From assembly GCA_038211765.1 (NCBI GenBank), contig JBBQVG010000022.1:1-15362 (forward strand): a stretch of 15,362 nt of DNA, read 5' to 3'. The DNA comes from Minisyncoccia bacterium (GTDB lineage Bacteria; Patescibacteriota; Minisyncoccia; Phycocordibacterales; PALSA-1337). The translations under genes and the position numbers were made by a program. Positions 1,153-10,844 of the stretch are shown here, one piece after another. Each line of letters starts with the position of its first letter. Positions within the stretch are counted from its first letter, which is position 1. The notes beneath the pieces were generated by a model that was not told where the DNA came from, did no database searches, and was given only the letters and a program-made list of their open reading frames with translations.

Positions 1153-2643
1153 CTAAGAAACGTGGTGCTTTGAGCGTATTTTCCCGATCTCTTCTTCCTG
1201 AGCCTCTTCTTTCCTCTTTCTACCCTCTTCTCCCAGTTGCGCCAATTCTTTCTCAGAGAGCTTTAACAGCTCCAATGTCTTGCTCTGTAGGTACTCTTCG
1301 GTATTAAGTTTGGGATCTTCCAGCACTTCTTCTAGTAGGGCATGCAAAATAGACCCGATCCTAGGACTTGGTCCTACCCCGCCAACCTCCATGATCTTCT
1401 GACCGTCGATTTTGAGCATCGCCACTGTGACAGGGTCCGCCATAGCCTCCTCTACCATAGATTTGTACTTTCTCAGTCTATAAGGGTTTTCCTTGGGCCT
1501 GCCGGTTCCTATACGGTCACAGATACGTACATTCATCAGATCCCAGATGTTTTCACGACCGACGTTTACGATCATACGGCGGACCGCAGAGAGTGAGATT
1601 TGTTCTGTATCACTAAAAAACATGTGCCAACGTACCAATTTGGCCACTTTTTCGATTGTTACACGTGAAAACTTCATTCTTTCGAGGATTTTACGTGTTT
1701 CACGTGAACCAACTACCTCGTGGCCATAAAAAGTGTAGGAATTTGCTTCACGTGAAAACTCTCTAGTCTTGGGCTTGGATATGTCATGAAATAGAGCCGC
1801 AAGTCTGATATCAAGAGGCCAATCCTTGTCTGCTGCACACTGAATGCTTCGAAGAAGGTGTTCCCAAACATCGTAAATGTGCACTCCCCTCTGTTCTATG
1901 CCAATTGCCGCTTCTAGTTCTGGTAAAAAGTGTTTCATGATCCCTGTTTGATGCAAAAGCTCCAAGCCTTTTTTGGGATTGCTCGAAAGAACAATCTTCA
2001 CGAACTCGTCACGGATACGTTCGATGGATATATCCTTAATAAAGCCAGAATGGCTCTGTATAGCCTCAAAAGTGTCCTTTTCGATAGTGAACTCTAGTTC
2101 GATGGCAAGACGGATGGCACGCATAATACGCAACGCATCCTCGCCGAAACGATCGCCGGGCTTCCCTACTGTCCTTATAACTTTGTCCTTTAGATCGGTG
2201 AAGCCACCGAAAAGGTCAACGATGTCTTTTATAGCGCCAGCAGACAGATTTACGGCTATAGCGTTGACCGTAAAGTCTCGACGCTGTAGATCGTCTTCCA
2301 GTTTATCGCTAAATTTGATGGTATCCGGGTGGCGGCGGTCTGAATATTCGGATTCTAGTCTATACGGGGTGACCTCAATGTTTCTCAAGCTCATCTCCTC
2401 AGTGCCTTCATTGATGACCGCAACAGTGCCATAAACATTCTCGTAGACTGTTTTTGGAAAGAGAGACTGGATCTTTTCTGGGTTAGCGTTTGTGGTGACG
2501 TCCCAGTCTTTGGGTCTACGACCGAGCAAGAGGTCTCGCACGCAACCGCCGACGAGATATGCCTCAAAACCGGCCTTTTCCAAGGTTTCGACAATATCTA
2601 CTACTTCCCTAGGAATAGGGCTGTTCTGGGCCATTTTCATCAT
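1153..2643 (-). CDS. cca: CCA-adding tRNA nucleotidyltransferase (PolyA-pol head domain plus C-terminal HD domain)
   Basis: 496-aa ORF. The N-terminus has GGCVRDLLLGRRPKDWDVTT and RRDFTVNA nucleotidyltransferase motifs. An HD motif (LFHDISKP) lies further downstream. Confidence 0.85.
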   Translation of the reverse strand: MMKMAQNSPIPREVVDIVETLEKAGFEAYLVGGCVRDLLLGRRPKDWDVTTNANPEKIQSLFPKTVYENVYGTVAVINEGTEEMSLRNIEVTPYRLESEYSDRRHPDTIKFSDKLEDDLQRRDFTVNAIAVNLSAGAIKDIVDLFGGFTDLKDKVIRTVGKPGDRFGEDALRIMRAIRLAIELEFTIEKDTFEAIQSHSGFIKDISIERIRDEFVKIVLSSNPKKGLELLHQTGIMKHFLPELEAAIGIEQRGVHIYDVWEHLLRSIQCAADKDWPLDIRLAALFHDISKPKTREFSREANSYTFYGHEVVGSRETRKILERMKFSRVTIEKVAKLVRWHMFFSDTEQISLSAVRRMIVNVGRENIWDLMNVRICDRIGTGRPKENPYRLRKYKSMVEEAMADPVTVAMLKIDGQKIMEVGGVGPSPRIGSILHALLEEVLEDPKLNTEEYLQSKTLELLKLSEKELAQLGEEGRKRKEEAQEEEIGKIRSKHHVS

Positions 2644-2660
2644 TGTAGTCTACAATAACT

Positions 2661-2688
2661 TTGGCTTTTTTCCTATGTGCGCTACTAT
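2661..2688 (+). promoter_or_regulatory. Candidate sigma70-type promoter for the tRNA-Arg/tRNA-Gly transcript
   Basis: TTGGCT (2661-2666), 16-nt spacer, TACTAT (2683-2688), about 30 nt upstream of tRNA-Arg and divergent from cca. Confidence 0.4.
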
Positions 2689-2717
2689 GATCGGACAGCT
2701 TCATGTTATTTTACATT

Positions 2718-2789
2718 GCGCCCGTGGTGAAATGGATATCACAACAGTCTTCGGAACTGTTGTTGCAGGTTCGAGTCCTGCCGGGCGCA
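2718..2789 (+). tRNA. tRNA-Arg (anticodon UCG)
   Basis: Hand-folded cloverleaf: acceptor GCGCCCG/CGGGCGC, D stem GTGA/TCAC, anticodon arm ACAGT-CTTCGGA-ACTGT, T arm GCAGG-TTCGAGT-CCTGC. Length 72 nt; no encoded CCA. Confidence 0.85.
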
Positions 2790-2853
2790 CAGAATTTTGA
2801 AATTGATGAGGTATAAGCTATACTTACCGAAATTGAAAATTTGAGATGACTCT

Positions 2854-2927
2854 GCGGGCATAGTTTAGTGGTAAAATGCGTCCTTGCCAAGGACGAGATG
2901 GGAGTTCGATTCTCCCTGCCCGCACCA
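2854..2927 (+). tRNA. tRNA-Gly (anticodon GCC), CCA encoded
   Basis: Acceptor GCGGGCA/TGCCCGC, anticodon arm CGTCC-TTGCCAA-GGACG, T arm GGGAG-TTCGATT-CTCCC, discriminator A followed by CCA (2925-2927). Confidence 0.9.
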
Positions 2928-2965
2928 ACATAGGGTTACCGATAGCAAAGCGAAGCTTTGCGTTT

Positions 2966-3078
2966 GAGAATCGAACGCCGGAGCGATGCTGAGTCAGCAG
3001 ACGAGGCCGCGAGGCGGTGGCTAGCCCGAGCCGAACTGGTGAGGTGAGAGGCGAAGCCGATTCTCCCTGCCCGCACCA
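2966..3078 (+). repeat. tRNA-tail element copy A: conserved 90-nt G-rich core (2971-3060) fused to a second copy of the tRNA-Gly(GCC) 3' end
   Basis: 2971-3060 aligns without gaps to 3855-3944 (79/90 identical by my count; perfect run 3009-3044 = 3893-3928). 3058-3078 (CGATTCTCCCTGCCCGCACCA) is an exact repeat of 2907-2927. 2966-2973 (GAGAATCG) is complementary to 3058-3065. Confidence 0.75.
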
Positions 3079-3272
3079 TAGGATAGTTGGGGATAACTCT
3101 GTGAATTGTGTTTATAAAAGACATGAATAAGGGCTAACAATCGTCATTTCTGTTGTCCGAGATGTCCTAAAGATATGTTTCACAAGAAACATTTCACGTG
3201 AAATAAGCCTGTTTTTCGATGTAAATTTGGCATATTATCTCTAATATTCGAGGTTTAACCTCGAAAATCAGT

Positions 3273-3647
3273 ATGCATAATAGACAAAAAGGTAATAATG
3301 GGGAAGATCTTGCATGTACTTTCTTGTCCAAGAAGGGCTTTATTGTTATAGATCGTAATTACTTGAAGAAGTGGGGTGAGCTCGACATCGTGGCCCAGAA
3401 AGACGGAAAGTTACACTTCTTTGAGGTAAAGAGTGTTATGTTTGGGGAAACTGCAGAGGGAAGTCATCGACCTGAGGACAACGTCCACGGATTGAAGGTA
3501 AGAAGTATCCGGAGAATGATCGAAACCTATATTGACGAGAAGAAGATCGCTCCAGAGACAGAATTTTATTTTCATGTACTATGTGTCTTTATGGACGAGC
3601 AAAGACGTAGTGCTCGAGTAAAGTGGATAGAAAACATCATTTTGTGA
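3273..3647 (+). CDS. yraN: YraN family (UPF0102) endonuclease-like protein
   Basis: 124-aa ORF with GEDLACTFLSKKGFIVIDRNY...GELDIVA...FFEVK, the characteristic YraN/PD-(D/E)xK-like pattern. Confidence 0.8.
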   Translation: MHNRQKGNNGEDLACTFLSKKGFIVIDRNYLKKWGELDIVAQKDGKLHFFEVKSVMFGETAEGSHRPEDNVHGLKVRSIRRMIETYIDEKKIAPETEFYFHVLCVFMDEQRRSARVKWIENIIL

Positions 3648-3654
3648 AACTTTG

Positions 3655-3663
3655 TGCTAATAT
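3655..3663 (+). promoter_or_regulatory. Candidate extended -10 element (TGCTAATAT) upstream of tRNA-Pro
   Basis: TGn-TAATAT lies 68 nt upstream of tRNA-Pro. Related TGCTAGTAT (4540-4548, before tRNA-Gly-UCC) and TGCTAGACT (7817-7825) occur in the window. No good -35 element. Confidence 0.35.
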
Positions 3664-3730
3664 GGCACGACACGCTGTCACCTTTGCGACCACGGGACTT
3701 GCCGTAGTGAGTCGCCTAGGAGACCAAAGA

Positions 3731-3803
3731 CGGGGCGTGGTGTAACGGCTAACATGCCTCTTTTGGGAAGAGGTGACTCCGGGTTCGAATCCCGGCGCCC
3801 CGA
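3731..3803 (+). tRNA. tRNA-Pro (anticodon UGG)
   Basis: Acceptor CGGGGCG/CGCCCCG, anticodon arm CCTCT-TTTGGGA-AGAGG, T arm CCGGG-TTCGAAT-CCCGG. Length 73 nt; no encoded CCA. Confidence 0.9.
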
Positions 3804-3848
3804 CAGACATTAGGTAAGCAATAGCAGGTGCCTTGAGGCACGTGCGTC

Positions 3849-4004
3849 CTGGATTCGAACGCCGGAGCCGTATCGAGCCAGCAGGCGAGATGGCGAGGCG
3901 GTGGCTAGCCCGAGCCGAACTGGTGAGGCGAGAGGCGAAGCCGAATCCCGGCGCCCCGACAAATTTTAGATAAGCAATAGCAGGTGCCTTGAGGCACGTG
4001 CGTC
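3849..4004 (+). repeat. tRNA-tail element copy B: conserved core (3855-3944) followed by a second copy of the tRNA-Pro 3' end plus its downstream hairpin
   Basis: 3942-4004 repeats 3786-3848 (63 nt with a few mismatches clustered at 3806-3815), giving a 156-bp period. 3851-3857 (GGATTCG) is complementary to 3942-3948 (CGAATCC). The core is homologous to copy A. Confidence 0.75.
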
Positions 4005-4054
4005 ATGGCAAAGCGATAGAGGCCGAATCATCGGCTGTGTGTTAAAATATTGAG

Positions 4055-4583: not shown

Positions 4584-4654
4584 GCGGGATTAGTTAAATG
4601 GTATAATAACAGTTTTCCAAACTGTGGTCGGGAGTTCGATTCTCCCATCCCGCA
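4584..4654 (+). tRNA. tRNA-Gly (anticodon UCC)
   Basis: Acceptor GCGGGAT/ATCCCGC, anticodon arm ACAGT-TTTCCAA-ACTGT, T arm GGGAG-TTCGATT-CTCCC. Length 71 nt. Confidence 0.9.
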
Positions 4655-4672
4655 CCGAAACACATTAATTAT

Positions 4673-5224
4673 ATGAAAAGACTTTTTGTAATACATGGGT
4701 GGGGTGGAAGCCCGAACGAACCAATGATCCATTGGTTGGGTGAAAAAGGGCGAGAGTTGGGTTATGAAGTGGCAGTACTAGAGATGCCCAACAGTGCTGT
4801 CCCTACTATAGGTGCGTGGACTGCTCACCTAGATGAGCACGTTATGTATGTTGACGAGAATACAGACTTTATCGGTCACAGCATCGGCTGTCAGGCCATC
4901 CTTCGCTATCTTGCAACTCAAAAAGGATCGAAGGTGGGCAAAGTTGTACTCATCGCTCCATGGATTGAGATTGCAGCACAGGAGACAGCAGAGGAAGAAG
5001 ACATCGCTCGTCCTTGGAAAGAAAACCCTATCGATTTCGTCTCTATTAGGGGTATGGGAAAGGATTTTACTGCGATTTTTTCAGACAATGACGCGGATGT
5101 ACCATTGGAAGCAAACAAAGCTTGGATTGAGAAAAATCTGAATGCCAATATTATTGTTGAGACAGGGAAGGGGCATTTTACCGAAGAGGACGGTGTAGTG
5201 GATTTACCATCGGTGTTTGTGTGA
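4673..5224 (+). CDS. Alpha/beta-fold serine hydrolase (YdeN/RBBP9-like)
   Basis: 183-aa ORF with an N-terminal VIHGWGGSP strand-loop and a GHSIGC nucleophile elbow (GxSxG). Confidence 0.75.
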   Translation: MKRLFVIHGWGGSPNEPMIHWLGEKGRELGYEVAVLEMPNSAVPTIGAWTAHLDEHVMYVDENTDFIGHSIGCQAILRYLATQKGSKVGKVVLIAPWIEIAAQETAEEEDIARPWKENPIDFVSIRGMGKDFTAIFSDNDADVPLEANKAWIEKNLNANIIVETGKGHFTEEDGVVDLPSVFV

Positions 5225-9110: not shown

Positions 9111-9163
9111 TCTGTTCTCGAGATGAGTATCTCGACTGACGAGTCTGAAAAGACGAAAACAGA
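9111..9163 (+). ncRNA. Hammerhead ribozyme, type III (HHR-1), predicted cleavage after C9117
   Basis: Stem III TCTGTT (9111-9116)/AACAGA (9158-9163), then C17. Stem I TCGAGA-TGAGTA-TCTCGA (9118-9135). Core CUGACGA (9136-9142). Stem II GTCT-GAAA-AGAC (9143-9154). Core GAAA (9155-9158). Confidence 0.85.
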
Positions 9164-9190
9164 AACGTTCTTTGAGTTAATAAAGCATTT

Positions 9191-9241
9191 CACCTCCGCT
9201 TTTTCTATTTCATTATTTTTGGAATAAAGAAAGCGGAGGTG
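9191..9241 (+). promoter_or_regulatory. Hairpin sequestering the Shine-Dalgarno sequence of the 9247 ORF
   Basis: CACCTCCGCTTT (9191-9202) pairs with AAAGCGGAGGTG (9230-9241). GGAGG (9235-9239) lies in the 3' arm, 7 nt before the ATG at 9247. Confidence 0.6.
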
Positions 9242-9246
9242 TAAAA

Positions 9247-9429
9247 ATGCCATTCTGCCGTCCCAAAGGGTCGGAGCTGGTTGCGATCATTGGTCGTAGC
9301 CTTCTCAGTAGTTGGGTGCACTCAAGCGTTGGCAGGCTGAAATCTGTCTTGGTAACCCCAGTAAAGAAGAAATTCTTTACACTTGAGAGTCGCAACTGCA
9401 AGCCGTATGAAGAGTACCTCTTCATTTGA
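9247..9429 (+). CDS. Hypothetical small protein (60 aa)
   Basis: The ORF is preceded by a strong GGAGGTG SD at optimal spacing. No family recognised, and an internal hairpin is present, so coding status is uncertain. Confidence 0.4.
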   Translation: MPFCRPKGSELVAIIGRSLLSSWVHSSVGRLKSVLVTPVKKKFFTLESRNCKPYEEYLFI

Positions 9430-9696: not shown

Positions 9697-9972
9697 GAAG
9701 CAATAACACCTGTAAAATGGTTGCCACAAAATCCGGTGGTGTAAATCAAGGTAAAAAGTTTTGTCCCCATTTCGTAAAATGGAGAGCCTAGAGGAAGCAG
9801 AGCCTCACGCAGTCGGAGCCGTATGGCTAGTATAGAGGTAACAGAGATCGACACTCTATTGCGTCCGAAGACTTGGTTGGCTAGTCTCCAACCCTAAGAT
9901 CGAGCACGGCCCAGTCGTGGGATACTCTAGTGGAAGTAACTAAAATCCACTCTTGATGACATTGTCATCAAG

Positions 9973-10024
9973 TTCTGTCTCAGAATGTAATTCTGACTGA
10001 TGAGCTCAAAAGAGCGAAACAGAA
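9973..10024 (+). ncRNA. Hammerhead ribozyme, type III (HHR-3 by order of discovery, second in position), predicted cleavage after C9979
   Basis: Stem III TTCTGT (9973-9978)/ACAGAA (10019-10024), then C17. Stem I TCAGAA(T)-GTA-(A)TTCTGA (9980-9996). Core CUGAUGA (9997-10003). Stem II GCTC-AAAA-GAGC (10004-10015). Core GAAA (10016-10019). Confidence 0.85.
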
Positions 10025-10035
10025 GTTCTTTACAA

Positions 10036-10298: not shown

Positions 10299-10349
10299 TT
10301 GCTCTCGAGATGTGTGTCTCGACTGATGAGTCCGAAAGGACGAAAGCAG
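10299..10349 (+). ncRNA. Hammerhead ribozyme, type III (HHR-2), predicted cleavage after C10304
   Basis: Stem III TTGCT (10299-10303)/AGCAG (10345-10349), then C17. Stem I TCGAGA-TGTGTG-TCTCGA (10305-10322). Core CUGAUGA (10323-10329). Stem II GTCC-GAAA-GGAC (10330-10341). Core GAAA (10342-10345). Confidence 0.85.
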
Positions 10350-10364: not shown

Positions 10365-10426
10365 TTGATGTTCATAATAATCTTATTTTTGAATATCATC
10401 AGAAATTAGATTATTATGAACATCAA
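10365..10426 (+). promoter_or_regulatory. 19-bp perfect hairpin burying the start codon of the GNAT gene
   Basis: TTGATGTTCATAATAATCT (10365-10383) pairs with AGATTATTATGAACATCAA (10408-10426) around a 24-nt loop. The ATG at 10416 is inside the 3' arm. Confidence 0.65.
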
Positions 10427-10844
10427 AATCATCTCTGCATCTGTAGCTACTCACCAGCTATTCAGTCAACACGCATACATCAAAGCTGATCTCTGGTTCC
10501 CAACTCTGTTTGGAGGGGATCGTATCTCATGTTGTGATGAGGCTGTGGTCGTTGAAGTCAGTGGTACAATCGTCGCTTTGGCGACTATCGCTCCAGAAGG
10601 AGAAATGACCTCAGGTGTTCCCACTATTGTTGGTCTATATACAGTACGTGGTCACCGGAAGTCCGGATACGCACGCCTGGCTTTCGAAGCGGCGGTTAAG
10701 AGGGGAATCGAACGTGGGTTTACCAAGATCCGCGTTGACACGCTCTCTAAGGGAGCTTTGAGAATCACGAAAACGATGCCAATGGAACTGTCACAAGTTC
10801 TAGAGGTTGGCCTCCAGATCCTTCTTTGTGGATTCCTGGAATAA
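10416..10844 (+). CDS. GNAT family N-acetyltransferase
   Basis: 142-aa ORF. VRGHRKSGYARLAFEAAVKRGIERG fits the GNAT motif A (R/Q-x-x-G-x-G/A) acetyl-CoA binding segment. Confidence 0.7.
   Translation: MNIKIISASVATHQLFSQHAYIKADLWFPTLFGGDRISCCDEAVVVEVSGTIVALATIAPEGEMTSGVPTIVGLYTVRGHRKSGYARLAFEAAVKRGIERGFTKIRVDTLSKGALRITKTMPMELSQVLEVGLQILLCGFLE

Follow-up and report, generated by a model that had tools for sequence, protein, structure and literature searches.

Non-coding mobile elements with a covarying three-way-junction fold at the 3' ends of tRNA genes in Patescibacteria

Why does the 3' end of a tRNA-Pro(UGG) gene, together with part of its downstream flank, recur 156 bp further along the genome of a Minisyncoccia bacterium, and why is a similar arrangement found at a tRNA-Gly(GCC) gene in the same stretch of DNA? 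The window analysed here, meaning the whole stretch of 15,362 nt, carries both genes on the plus strand. The tRNA-Pro(UGG) gene at 3731-3804 is intact (ARAGORN; Rfam tRNA, 62.9 bits), and the tRNA-Gly(GCC) gene at 2854-2927 is called by ARAGORN and Rfam. The direct repeat at tRNA-Pro that had been noticed in the sequence is real, with 3786-3852 aligning to 3942-4008 over 67 nt at 93% identity and a period of 156. Its left edge is C56 of the tRNA, and four of the five mismatches fall within the first 9 nt past the tRNA end, which is where they had been said to cluster. At tRNA-Gly, the repeat is 21 nt long with a period of 151. The two inserts are homologous (2959-3072 and 3843-3956, 82% identity), in agreement with the original prediction that both loci represent one architecture built on a conserved core. 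The window contains exactly two occurrences of a 26-nt core word, vs. 0.00 expected from 200 shuffles. Tandem Repeats Finder did not report the 151- and 156-bp periods in the window because each comprises fewer than two full units.

Comparison with syntenic tRNA loci in relatives, which had been proposed as a check, proved decisive. The relative L036, whose YraN protein is 89% identical, has clean empty sites at both tRNA-Pro and tRNA-Gly. When 2928-3078 (151 bp) is excised from the window, the Gly locus is colinear with that of L036, with 224 of 280 positions matching. Five further syntenic relatives carry the same four tRNAs. No copy was detected in the syntenic relatives L040, L044, and L046; in L037 the element is present at Pro and Gly-UCC, and in L048 at Arg-UCG and Pro. 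Sixteen intact copies, plus degraded ones, were found in independent Patescibacteria assemblies. The 18-mer genome scan contributed only two real copies (L006 and L012), both confirmed by the covariance model; its other matches were mostly chance matches in GC-rich genomes, and L029, from the metagenome scan, was likewise a chance match. An assembly artefact, which had been named as a possible outcome, is excluded because the same architecture is present in independent NCBI, ENA, and JGI assemblies. The Pro and Gly loci carry non-autonomous, non-coding mobile elements of Patescibacteria (CPR) that were not described before, and literature searches found no description of such an element. As had been proposed, the loci bear neither a plain tandem duplication nor the footprint of a conventional transposase.

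Every one of the 16 intact copies lies directly 3' of a tRNA and shares its strand. At least 11 tRNA species are represented, and the anatomy is the same throughout. A motif F is followed by a perfect hairpin H, a guide of 11-13 nt that is antisense to the T-loop and T-stem of the respective tRNA, the conserved hairpins P2 and P3, and a second copy of the tRNA 3' end starting at about C56. The unique part of the element is non-coding and measures 129-184 nt across copies and approximately 130-135 nt in the window. At the Pro locus, where all parts are on the plus strand, the proximal copy of the duplicated target is the 3' part of the tRNA from C56 (3786-3805), as defined by the direct repeat. 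Motif F (GACATTAGGTAAGCAATA; 3806-3823), the trailer-like 5' end of the element, begins right at the tRNA 3' end, is conserved across copies as (A)ACATTAGTNAAC..GAGCA, and is missing from the empty site of L036. Hairpin H (GCAGGTGCC-TTGA-GGCACGTGC; 3824-3845) is an inverted repeat supported by covariation in helix 1. The guide CCTGGATTCGAAC (3848-3860) is antisense to tRNA-Pro positions 53-65 by complementarity and supplies helix P1 with its 5' strand; its 13 nt are 92% complementary to 3783-3795, which comprise the T-loop and the T-stem 3' strand, and it also pairs with 3942-3951. The P2 hairpin (3860-3900; RNAalifold, with covariation in helices 3-4) features a conserved GGA/GA internal loop, an AU bulge, a tandem GA/GA loop, and an AGCA end loop, with compensatory differences between the Pro and Gly copies. 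The P3 hairpin (3903-3942; RNAalifold, helices 5-6) has the end loop GAACUGGUGA and ends on C56 of the distal tRNA fragment. This fragment (3942-3961; positions 56 to approximately 75, CGAATCCCGGCGCCCCGACA) is the target duplication, a perfect 20-nt run from C56 whose first 8-10 nt serve as the 3' strand in P1. The tRNA stays intact because the element is followed by this duplicate of the segment from the T-loop to the 3' end.

What remains of the repeat at tRNA-Pro belongs to an older insertion. The segment 3962-4008 is 93% identical to 3806-3852 and comprises F', H' (3980-4001, the second occurrence of the hairpin within the repeat), and GTCATGG, i.e., the 5' part of an older second copy. 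The extra 43 nt in the 63-nt repeat come from the 5' portion of this second element, which has undergone an internal deletion. Downstream, 4009-4041 would be the remnant of that copy after an internal deletion of approximately 85 nt. Within it, GAGGCCGAATCATCGGC matches GAAGCCGAATC-CCGGC at 15 of 17 positions, which is suggestive of a P3 end joined to a decayed third tRNA 3' fragment; this older-copy reading draws on a short similarity. An analogous nested remnant is found in L028. Each new copy lands beside the tRNA, so that older copies, which decay, are displaced further downstream, and it is this nesting that produces the 63-nt repeat and the 156-bp period. The contrast drawn in the original prediction between 21 and 63 duplicated nucleotides does not hold, as the true target duplication is approximately 20 nt at both loci. 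Since 3962-4008 is a second element copy, the argument from length against a target-site duplication falls away, although the duplication is indeed long and slightly variable.

The Gly locus presents the simpler, sister arrangement, also on the plus strand. The proximal copy of the duplicated target lies within the tRNA gene at 2907-2927 (the 21-nt repeat). It is followed by the element at 2928-3057, recognized by homology to the Pro insert and by a covariance-model match of 139 bits, with F at 2928-2944, H at 2945-2961, the guide at 2966-2976, P2 at 2976-3016, and P3 at 3019-3058. The distal copy of tRNA-Gly positions 56-76 (CGATTCTCCCTGCCCGCACCA; 3058-3078) is a perfect 21-nt run, directly 3' of which the native flank TAGGAT... 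begins.

Across 14 copies, the tRNA-derived duplication starts at position 54-58 (mostly 56), extends for 16-22 nt, and ends at about the discriminator, with its right edge clustered at positions 72-77; F begins there. The family comprises three divergent subfamilies with a common architecture, and a core of approximately 92 nt is identical between MAGs labelled Taylorbacteria and Saccharibacteria. Other copies are decayed or carry internal deletions, and in four copies decay has affected the acceptor part of the distal fragment but spared its P1 strand. Some copies are mosaics: those in L037 have identical cores with unrelated F, H, and guide, and those in L030 have the same F-H with different cores. 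The copy at tRNA-Val in L034 is especially informative. Its guide is identical to that of L012 and mismatched to its own tRNA, while its distal fragment is a hybrid in which CGA of the old type is followed by CTCCC... of the new tRNA. An inherited guide next to a target-derived distal fragment shows that the duplication is a true target duplication as opposed to an att site borne by the element.

Comparative analysis indicates that the element folds into hairpin H followed by a three-way junction closed by P1, which pairs the guide with the duplicated T-loop/T-stem strand. In the family fold, 97% of cells are paired vs. 34-41% in slid controls, and double-sided changes are found in 29 of 40 pairs. 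None of 500 shuffles matched the observed pairing, double-sided changes, or covariation score, and the covariation of the family goes beyond shifted-register controls, as in a structured RNA. The stem sequence of hairpin H is hypervariable from copy to copy yet invariably paired, with double changes in eight of nine pairs and 97.9% of its cells paired (helix 1); in P2 (helices 3-4), 12 of 13 pairs show double changes. Pairing is almost purely Watson-Crick, with 7 G-U vs. 5 A-C cells among 594. As there is no wobble excess, RNA is not favoured over folded single-stranded DNA as the folded species, and the conserved purine-rich loops give a hint that this species is the plus strand. In P1, the guide strand corresponds to the bottom strand of the target and its partner to the top strand. 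Cognate complementarity of the guide amounts to 9-12 (+1) nt in 14 of 15 copies vs. a non-cognate mean of 6. The P3 loop can be read as UGGUG, complementary to the tRNA end CACCA; neither the discriminator nor position 72 covaries with this loop, which two subfamilies lack.

Searches for known families and partner genes returned little. In a scan of the element against Rfam 15, which covers hammerhead, twister, pistol, hatchet, and HDV-like ribozymes, group I/II intron domains, tmRNA, and box C/D RNAs, at the gathering threshold and at E<=10, only tRNAs pass, and the best matches within the element are noise (tmRNA_permuted, E=1.3; sR53, E=6.6; mir-375, E=3.8). Pattern scans of IMG/VR and blastn against phages and plasmids gave no true match; one match to a Streptomyces plasmid lies in a coding region (E=0.01). 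The 130-nt element contains no ORF and has neither a poly(A) tail nor any other canonical retroelement tail, and no promoter-like or terminator-like site was found between the tRNA and the element. No reverse transcriptase, integrase, or transposase adjoins any copy in windows of up to 20 kb, where the neighbourhoods consist of housekeeping genes only; a large serine recombinase at tRNA-His in L034 belongs to an unrelated integration.

Several known types of structure were considered and set aside. A minus-strand tRNA-like gene fails as its apparent T-arm is unpaired, a bulge of 1 nt in place of 3 speaks against a k-turn or box C/D guide, and the match to group II domain V (GAGCCGUAU) is found in one copy only. 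A TnpB-style omega RNA with the tRNA fragment as its 3' guide would target the occupied site too, and a primer-binding site for mature tRNA is at odds with a distal fragment that tracks the gene sequence and not the CCA-tailed tRNA. A self-splicing group I or II intron is incompatible with a core of approximately 85 nt with two hairpins, no Rfam intron match, and an uninterrupted tRNA, and likeness to introns is limited to the geometry of the guide, which crosses positions 55/56 like P1/P10. In a MITE or DDE derivative, neither the internal inverted repeats (H; guide and distal fragment) nor the 16-22-nt duplication with fuzzy edges would fit. The same duplication, together with one variable hairpin at the left end only and a guide of 11-13 nt placed 3' of it, sets the element apart from an IS200/IS605 PATE.

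How the element moves is a more tentative matter. In the preferred explanation, the mobile element family spreads by SINE-like, target-primed copying after co-transcription with the tRNA, a whole reading to which we assign a probability of roughly 0.45. The element would be co-transcribed with its tRNA, and tRNA 3' processing, with RNase Z cutting after the discriminator, would make the 5' end of the element RNA; such a cut would account for the constant start of F at the tRNA end. After folding, the RNA would dock on another tRNA gene, where its guide would pair with positions 53-63 of the sense strand and its 3' tRNA fragment with the antisense strand. A nick in the T-loop would prime reverse transcription by a trans-encoded reverse transcriptase. 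Once the gene had been nicked again close to the tRNA 3' end and the gap filled in, the segment from the T-loop to the 3' end would be duplicated, a route resembling SINE or R2 mobilization. The inferred part taken alone, i.e., co-transcription, docking, and target-primed reverse transcription, is tentative, with the odds somewhat against it. We infer that an RNA route is favoured by the lack of a promoter- or terminator-like site, the right edge at the discriminator, the retention of the P1 strand, and the variable length of the duplication; this variable length and the lack of a promoter-like site of its own agree with a SINE-like element as a matter of consistency only. Weighing against the preferred explanation are the lack of an adjoining mobility gene, of a wobble excess, and of a retroelement tail. 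As 14 of 15 copies have a guide that fits the tRNA beside them, the model would also need adaptation after insertion, whether by selection or by quasi-palindrome correction, and the mosaic copies (L037, L030) need gene conversion. A more far-reaching conjecture, and a doubtful one, is that a protein-less structured RNA of approximately 130 nt acts as a bacterial SINE or RNA-guided homing element, riding on tRNA transcription and processing and using a double guide (the antisense T-loop guide and its own tRNA 3' fragment) to be copied into DNA at the T-loop. The three-way junction might even be catalytic, cleaving or ligating at the junction of P3 and C56.

Movement at the DNA level offers two other explanations. 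It is known that integrases crossing over in the T-loop leave a repeat layout from the T-loop to the 3' end, and this layout is present here, as a tRNA direct repeat of that extent flanks the insert. A circle of approximately 150 nt, either duplex or folded single-stranded DNA, could recombine with the T-arm by means of a trans-encoded tyrosine recombinase (T-loop-class or Xer-like) and bring a replacement tRNA 3' end, with folded P1 rebuilding a duplex identical to the T-loop/T-stem of the gene. The assignment of the P1 strands to the bottom and top strands of the target, the purely Watson-Crick pairing, which suits a DNA-level fold, and the tandem and nested copies, as in att-site accretion, all agree with such site-specific integration. 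It is nonetheless unlikely. A Campbell-type move to a new tRNA species would create a chimeric, defective tRNA, yet 11 species carry perfect duplications, and the use of at least 11 tRNA species makes an excised circle of approximately 150 bp an improbable general route. Moreover, the distal repeat of L034-Val derives from the target while its guide is inherited, the left edge of identity inside the T-loop (54-58, mostly 56) means that a loop-spanning overlap would not be identical, no integrase is found in the element or within the windows of up to 20 kb, and the conserved purine-rich internal loops are left unexplained. A non-autonomous DNA transposon moved by an enzyme with a long stagger, such as a Cas1/casposase-like or other integrase, or an IS200/IS605-like transposase that chooses its site through H and the guide, is decidedly improbable. 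Casposons insert at tRNA 3' ends with duplications and IS608 pairs a guide with its cleavage site, and in these respects the target duplication of approximately 20 bp at tRNA 3' ends and the hairpin adjacent to target-complementary sequence are reminiscent of them. However, terminal inverted repeats are lacking, as F and the end of P3 are unrelated, and both edges of the 16-22-nt duplication are fuzzy, whereas DDE enzymes and Cas1 give fixed lengths and IS200/IS605 none. The guide is 11-13 nt and 3' of the hairpin, while IS608 guides are 4 nt and 5' of it, and no such enzyme was found nearby.

Another explanation is that the element is a host-useful, tRNA-linked ncRNA, be it a processing or stability module, a decoy for tRNA nucleases, or a T-loop/CCA-binding regulator, spread by natural transformation and homologous recombination, with the tRNA gene and the 20-nt fragment serving as homology arms and gene conversion homogenizing the copies. 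The retention of the P1-P2-P3 fold, including the P1 strand of decayed distal fragments, the single architecture of three divergent subfamilies, the complementarity of UGGUG in the P3 loop to CACCA, the mosaic copies, which fit gene conversion, and housekeeping neighbourhoods without mobility genes would all suit this explanation. Even so, it is rather unlikely: the element is sporadic at orthologous tRNAs of close relatives and missing from most, many copies are decayed or internally deleted, the P3 loop shows no covariation with the tRNA end and is absent from two subfamilies, and homologous recombination alone cannot account for the arrival of the element, with a fresh duplication, at a tRNA species new to it. 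Also refuted is the view that no mobile element is involved and that replication slippage duplicated this one locus in tandem or the assembly is at fault. A direct repeat does flank a unique segment, and unequal recombination between repeats could partly explain the nested Pro copies; but the same core is found at two tRNAs of the window and, behind 11 tRNA species, in over 10 independent assemblies, the inserted 130 nt have no source at the empty site of L036, and covariation across copies is strong.

CPR/Patescibacteria genomes are approximately 1 Mb in size and are thought to be poor in mobile elements. The element described here, tiny and protein-less, has colonized many tRNA 3' ends time and again while leaving the tRNAs unbroken. 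It provides a compact natural case of nucleic-acid-guided site choice, combining a guide tailored to the T-loop, a copy of the other strand, and a covarying three-way junction. If the RNA intermediate is true, the element would be a bacterial counterpart of SINEs tied to tRNA processing; if instead a folded-DNA route is true, it would extend the principle of CTX and attC to tRNA genes. In either case, these elements account for isolated tRNA 3' fragments and unusual trailers in genomes of CPR bacteria, can mislead the annotation of tRNAs and att sites, and are polymorphic markers for strain tracking.

Like SINEs and R2 non-LTR elements, the element is non-coding or non-autonomous, would depend for its expression on transcription of a host RNA gene (R2 is co-transcribed with 28S rRNA), has 3' target homology that would help priming and long, variable duplications, and decays. 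Unlike them, it is bacterial, has no A-rich tail, no tRNA-derived promoter head, and no partner reverse transcriptase that was found, and features an antisense guide and a covarying three-way junction while inserting at the tRNA gene itself and regenerating the tRNA. With the islands, prophages, and cis-mobilizable elements at tRNA T-loops it shares the direct repeat from the T-loop to the 3' end, a functional tRNA, and tandem accretion. It differs from these islands in its insert of approximately 130 nt without an integrase, its use of 11 or more tRNA species with a separate duplication in each case, one fresh hop with a target-derived distal repeat, and an interior that is a structured module as opposed to attP arms. 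The attP of CTX-phi and integron attC sites offer another parallel, as inverted segments approximately 85-90 nt apart fold into a target-mimicking duplex with conserved unpaired bases, and tandem arrays occur; the element, however, has no recognizable Xer/IntI-type site, no cargo, and no replication function, and it switches tRNA specificity.

As a structured ncRNA with complementarity to its insertion site, the element also resembles the bridge RNA of IS110, the omega RNAs of TnpB/IscB, and the guides of group I and II introns. It has one segment for each DNA strand, and its guide spans the 55/56 junction like P1/P10 or EBS/IBS. In contrast to these RNA-guided systems, it has no recombinase or nuclease gene and no Rfam match, is far smaller than intron ribozymes, pairs its two guide segments with each other, and produces a 20-nt duplication. 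Finally, like Correia, RUP, Rickettsia palindromic, and REP/BIME elements, it is small, non-coding, structured, multi-copy, and polymorphic in presence and absence. What distinguishes it from such MITEs and palindromic repeats is the lack of terminal inverted repeats and of a short, fixed duplication, its strict placement and orientation at tRNA 3' ends, and a guide part that is tailored to each host tRNA.

Four tRNA genes were located on the forward strand of the window by ARAGORN and Rfam: tRNA-Arg(UCG) (2718-2790), tRNA-Gly(GCC) (2854-2927), tRNA-Pro(UGG) (3731-3804), and tRNA-Gly(UCC) (4584-4656). The original prediction held that the 3' end of tRNA-Pro is repeated with its downstream flank at a period of 156 bp, and the repeat finder recovered this repeat as 67 nt at 93% identity (3786-3852 vs. 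3942-4008, spacing 156), beginning at C56 of the tRNA and with four of the five mismatches just past the tRNA end, where they had been said to cluster. The architecture proposed as common to tRNA-Gly(GCC) was likewise borne out: 2895-2927 recurs at 3046-3078 with a spacing of 151, and the two inserts are 82% alike over 114 nt (2959-3072 vs. 3843-3956). The window contains exactly two occurrences of a 26-nt core word, against a chance expectation of zero.

Side-by-side reading of the two loci yields a single plan, in which the intact tRNA is followed by F, H, guide, P2, P3, and a second tRNA copy running from C56 onward. F is a 17-18-nt motif, (A)ACATTAGGTAAC..AGCA; H is a perfect hairpin (plus strand, 3824-3845 at Pro and 2945-2961 at Gly); and P2 and P3 are GC-rich hairpins 3' of the guide. 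The guide, 11-13 nt long, is the reverse complement of the T-loop and T-stem 3' strand of its own tRNA: CCTGGATTCGAAC at 3848-3860 (plus strand) matches GTTCGAATCCCGG at 3783-3795, and GAGAATCGAAC at 2966-2976 (plus strand) has the same role at Gly. It is complementary also to the start of the second tRNA copy, so that this helix (P1) forms a three-way junction with P2 and P3; compensatory changes in P2 already separate the Gly from the Pro copy. At two loci in other assemblies (L034, 4219-4248; L035, 1226-1263), F also holds the reverse complement of the tRNA acceptor 3' strand (TGTGCTCCCA and CGTGCACGGG), so the whole distal tRNA fragment could be paired there; in L035 a terminator-like hairpin lies between the tRNA and this segment. 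A 62-aa ORF (2936-3124, minus strand) overlaps the Gly element antisense; annotation pipelines could call it as a gene, and it is almost certainly spurious.

Outside the window, GTDB species genomes scanned with an 18-mer yielded two genuine matches amid chance ones, namely L006, a Candidatus Taylorbacteria MAG with a copy behind tRNA-Glu(CUC), and L012, a Candidatus Saccharibacteria MAG, labels that could reflect binning. Their cores of ~92 nt are 100% identical (L006 4940-5035; L012 5045-4950, minus strand) while H, guide, and tRNA differ, a pattern explained either by horizontal spread in the recent past or by faulty binning. Seven loci were added by scanning JGI metagenomes with a 20-mer, and a covariance model trained on nine copies, with which all chance loci scored ≤14 bits, recovered more divergent ones; exact-word scans under-sample the family. 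In total, 16 distinct intact copies were collected, along with one recognised by eye (L048-Pro) and several degraded copies. Every copy lies directly 3' of a tRNA and on its strand, the hosts being Gly-GCC, Gly-UCC, Pro-UGG, Glu-CUC, Leu-GAG, Leu-CAA, Arg-CCG, Arg-CCU, Arg-UCG, Val-UAC, and Tyr-GUA. Three subfamilies share the architecture and differ in P2/P3 sequence and P3 end loop (GAACUGGUGA, GGGUA, or GUA).

Several lines of comparative evidence argue that this structure is under constraint. In the 16-copy alignment, which was made with the covariance model and leans toward the model structure, standard pairs fill 97% of cells as opposed to 34-41% after partners are shifted by 1-3 columns, and both sides have changed in 29 of the 40 pairs; of 500 shuffles, none equalled the real alignment in pairing percentage, double-sided changes, or covariation score. 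An independent MAFFT alignment of nine sequences gave compensatory changes in 18 of 40 pairs with RNAalifold. Internal loops that are conserved and unpaired include GGA/GA, an AU bulge, and tandem GA/GA. Pairing is almost purely Watson-Crick (7 G-U vs. 5 A-C cells), and the folded species would be either plus-strand RNA or single-stranded DNA.

Comparison with syntenic tRNA loci of relatives, as the original prediction had advised, revealed empty sites. Between the two window loci lies a YraN gene, 89% identical to a homologue in L036, a 68.6-kb NCBI contig with the same gene order and four tRNAs. There, TAGGATAAG..., which in the window stands 3' of the second tRNA fragment, directly follows tRNA-Gly(GCC), and the window minus 2928-3078 (151 bp) is colinear with L036 across tRNA and flank (224 of 280 positions identical); judged by this alignment, the insert at tRNA-Gly is an insertion. 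The tRNA-Pro of L036 also lacks the element; the gene downstream has an orthologue there at 82% amino-acid identity, and the intergenic DNA cannot be aligned. Five more syntenic relatives were compared: no copy was detected in three (L040, L044, L046), L037 has copies at Pro and Gly-UCC, and L048 at Arg-UCG and Pro. That orthologous tRNAs are occupied so unevenly points to mobility and not to an ancestral gene. F-like words (TTAGTG/TTAGTT) recur in trailers of tRNAs without the element (L028 1093-1120; L036 3299-3315 and 4870-4885; L037 2911-2935; L040 2852-2880 and 5496-5512; window 4657-4680), either as traces left by lost copies or as a signal native to trailers and imitated by the element. 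Two trailers (L040 ~3224-3270; L046 ~2481-2520) share GCTTCGAAGTGC(G/A)GGCAC, which includes the complement of a tRNA acceptor 3' strand and could point to another type of small insert associated with tRNAs.

Identity between tRNA and distal fragment starts at tRNA position 54-58, mostly C56 (14 copies). In nine copies a perfect run of 16-22 nt ends at position 72-77, around the discriminator; in four (L030 twice, L035, L037-Gly-UCC) just the initial 7-8 nt, which form the P1 strand, are kept, and the acceptor part is decayed or interrupted. At L030 859-905, a 24-nt insertion splits the distal tRNA-Arg fragment (GATTCCTG, then ATTCAGTAGAATCACCTACTGGGT, then CTGGGAGCACA). The repeat is longer at L028 (38 nt) and at Pro in the window (63-67 nt), the surplus consisting of F alone or of F plus H from another copy. 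At Pro, F'+H' of this further copy (3962-4008, plus strand) is followed by an internal deletion of ~85 nt and then GAGGCCGAATCATCGGC, which matches the P3 end and a decayed tRNA fragment; this match of about 17 nt is suggestive of 4009-4041 being the remnant of an older copy. L028 retains F' and a recognisable guide remnant, GAATCGTGAAC. These remnants imply that new copies insert beside the tRNA and displace older ones downstream. The contrast in duplication length between Gly and Pro (21 vs. 63 nt), previously taken to bear on insertion chemistry, is instead a product of nesting, the extra Pro sequence being F'+H'.

The longest perfect complementarity between guide and own tRNA is 9-12 nt plus a C opposite G53 in 14 of 15 copies (non-cognate mean 6) and takes in tRNA-specific T-stem bases. 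The exception is L034-Val, whose guide is identical to that of L012 and fits a GGTTCGAATCCT tRNA, not tRNA-Val (TTCAACT loop), and whose distal fragment runs CGA|CTCCC... against CAACTCCC in the tRNA. We read this as a probable recent hop, with guide and 'CGA' inherited from the donor and the remainder of the distal fragment taken from the new target. On that reading the repeat is a genuine duplication of the target rather than an att site brought in by the element; a replacement tRNA end carried by the element would, on moving between tRNA species, yield defective chimeric tRNAs. L034 also encodes a large serine recombinase (2249-3820, plus strand; Resolvase, Recombinase, and Zn-ribbon domains) that ends inside the 3' end of tRNA-His (3811-3883, minus strand) and looks like a separate integrated element.

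Elsewhere in the window, three hammerhead type III-like motifs (CUGAUGAG/CUGACGAG ... CGAAA; plus strand, 9116-9158, 9972-10025, 10303-10345) score 29-44.5 bits in Rfam, just below the gathering score of 48.5 bits, and reach E-values as low as 4.8e-8. A GTTCTTTACA-like box comes after each of them, and two have a long near-perfect hairpin of ~60 nt (9185-9250, 10366-10427; surfaced as spurious microRNA matches) ~25-30 nt downstream, suggestive of a 'hammerhead plus hairpin' module that recurs among small ORFs.

How the element moves is a matter of graded plausibility. No promoter-like or terminator-like site was seen between tRNA and element, so co-transcription is likely, and F always starts no more than a few nucleotides from the discriminator, the point at which RNase Z cleaves precursors lacking CCA; together these favour an RNA intermediate whose 5' end comes from tRNA processing. 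At a tRNA gene the guide of such an RNA would dock on the sense strand and its 3' tRNA fragment on the antisense strand; a trans-acting reverse transcriptase could copy the RNA from a nick in the T-loop, and a second nick near the tRNA end followed by fill-in would give the duplication. This route, to which we assign a probability of roughly 0.35, explains the orientation, where F begins, why the edges are fuzzy, and how the hybrid junction and the nesting arise. Against it, no reverse transcriptase was seen near any copy, a G-U excess is absent, and guides would have to adapt after each hop.

Mosaic copies also count against the RNA route since they imply gene conversion: in L037 cores are identical while F, H, and guide are unrelated, and in L030 F-H is the same while cores differ. 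Recombination at the DNA level of a folded or circular form is an unlikely alternative. That the element is an RNA useful to the host and spread by recombination seems quite improbable, and another DNA transposition chemistry very improbable.

No match to the element was obtained in Rfam 15 or in phage, plasmid, and IMG/VR collections, and full-text literature searches turned up no description of it. The element fails the defining tests of a MITE, an IS200/IS605 derivative, an intron, and an integrase-borne island. Its resemblance to T-loop integrase att-site duplications and to the folded sites of CTX-phi and attC is one of appearance. It is classed as a small non-autonomous insertion element, with a real, if less than even, chance that it represents a categorically new RNA-guided or retro-type element; in its workings it is most like SINEs and R2-type elements, as a passenger of a host RNA gene.
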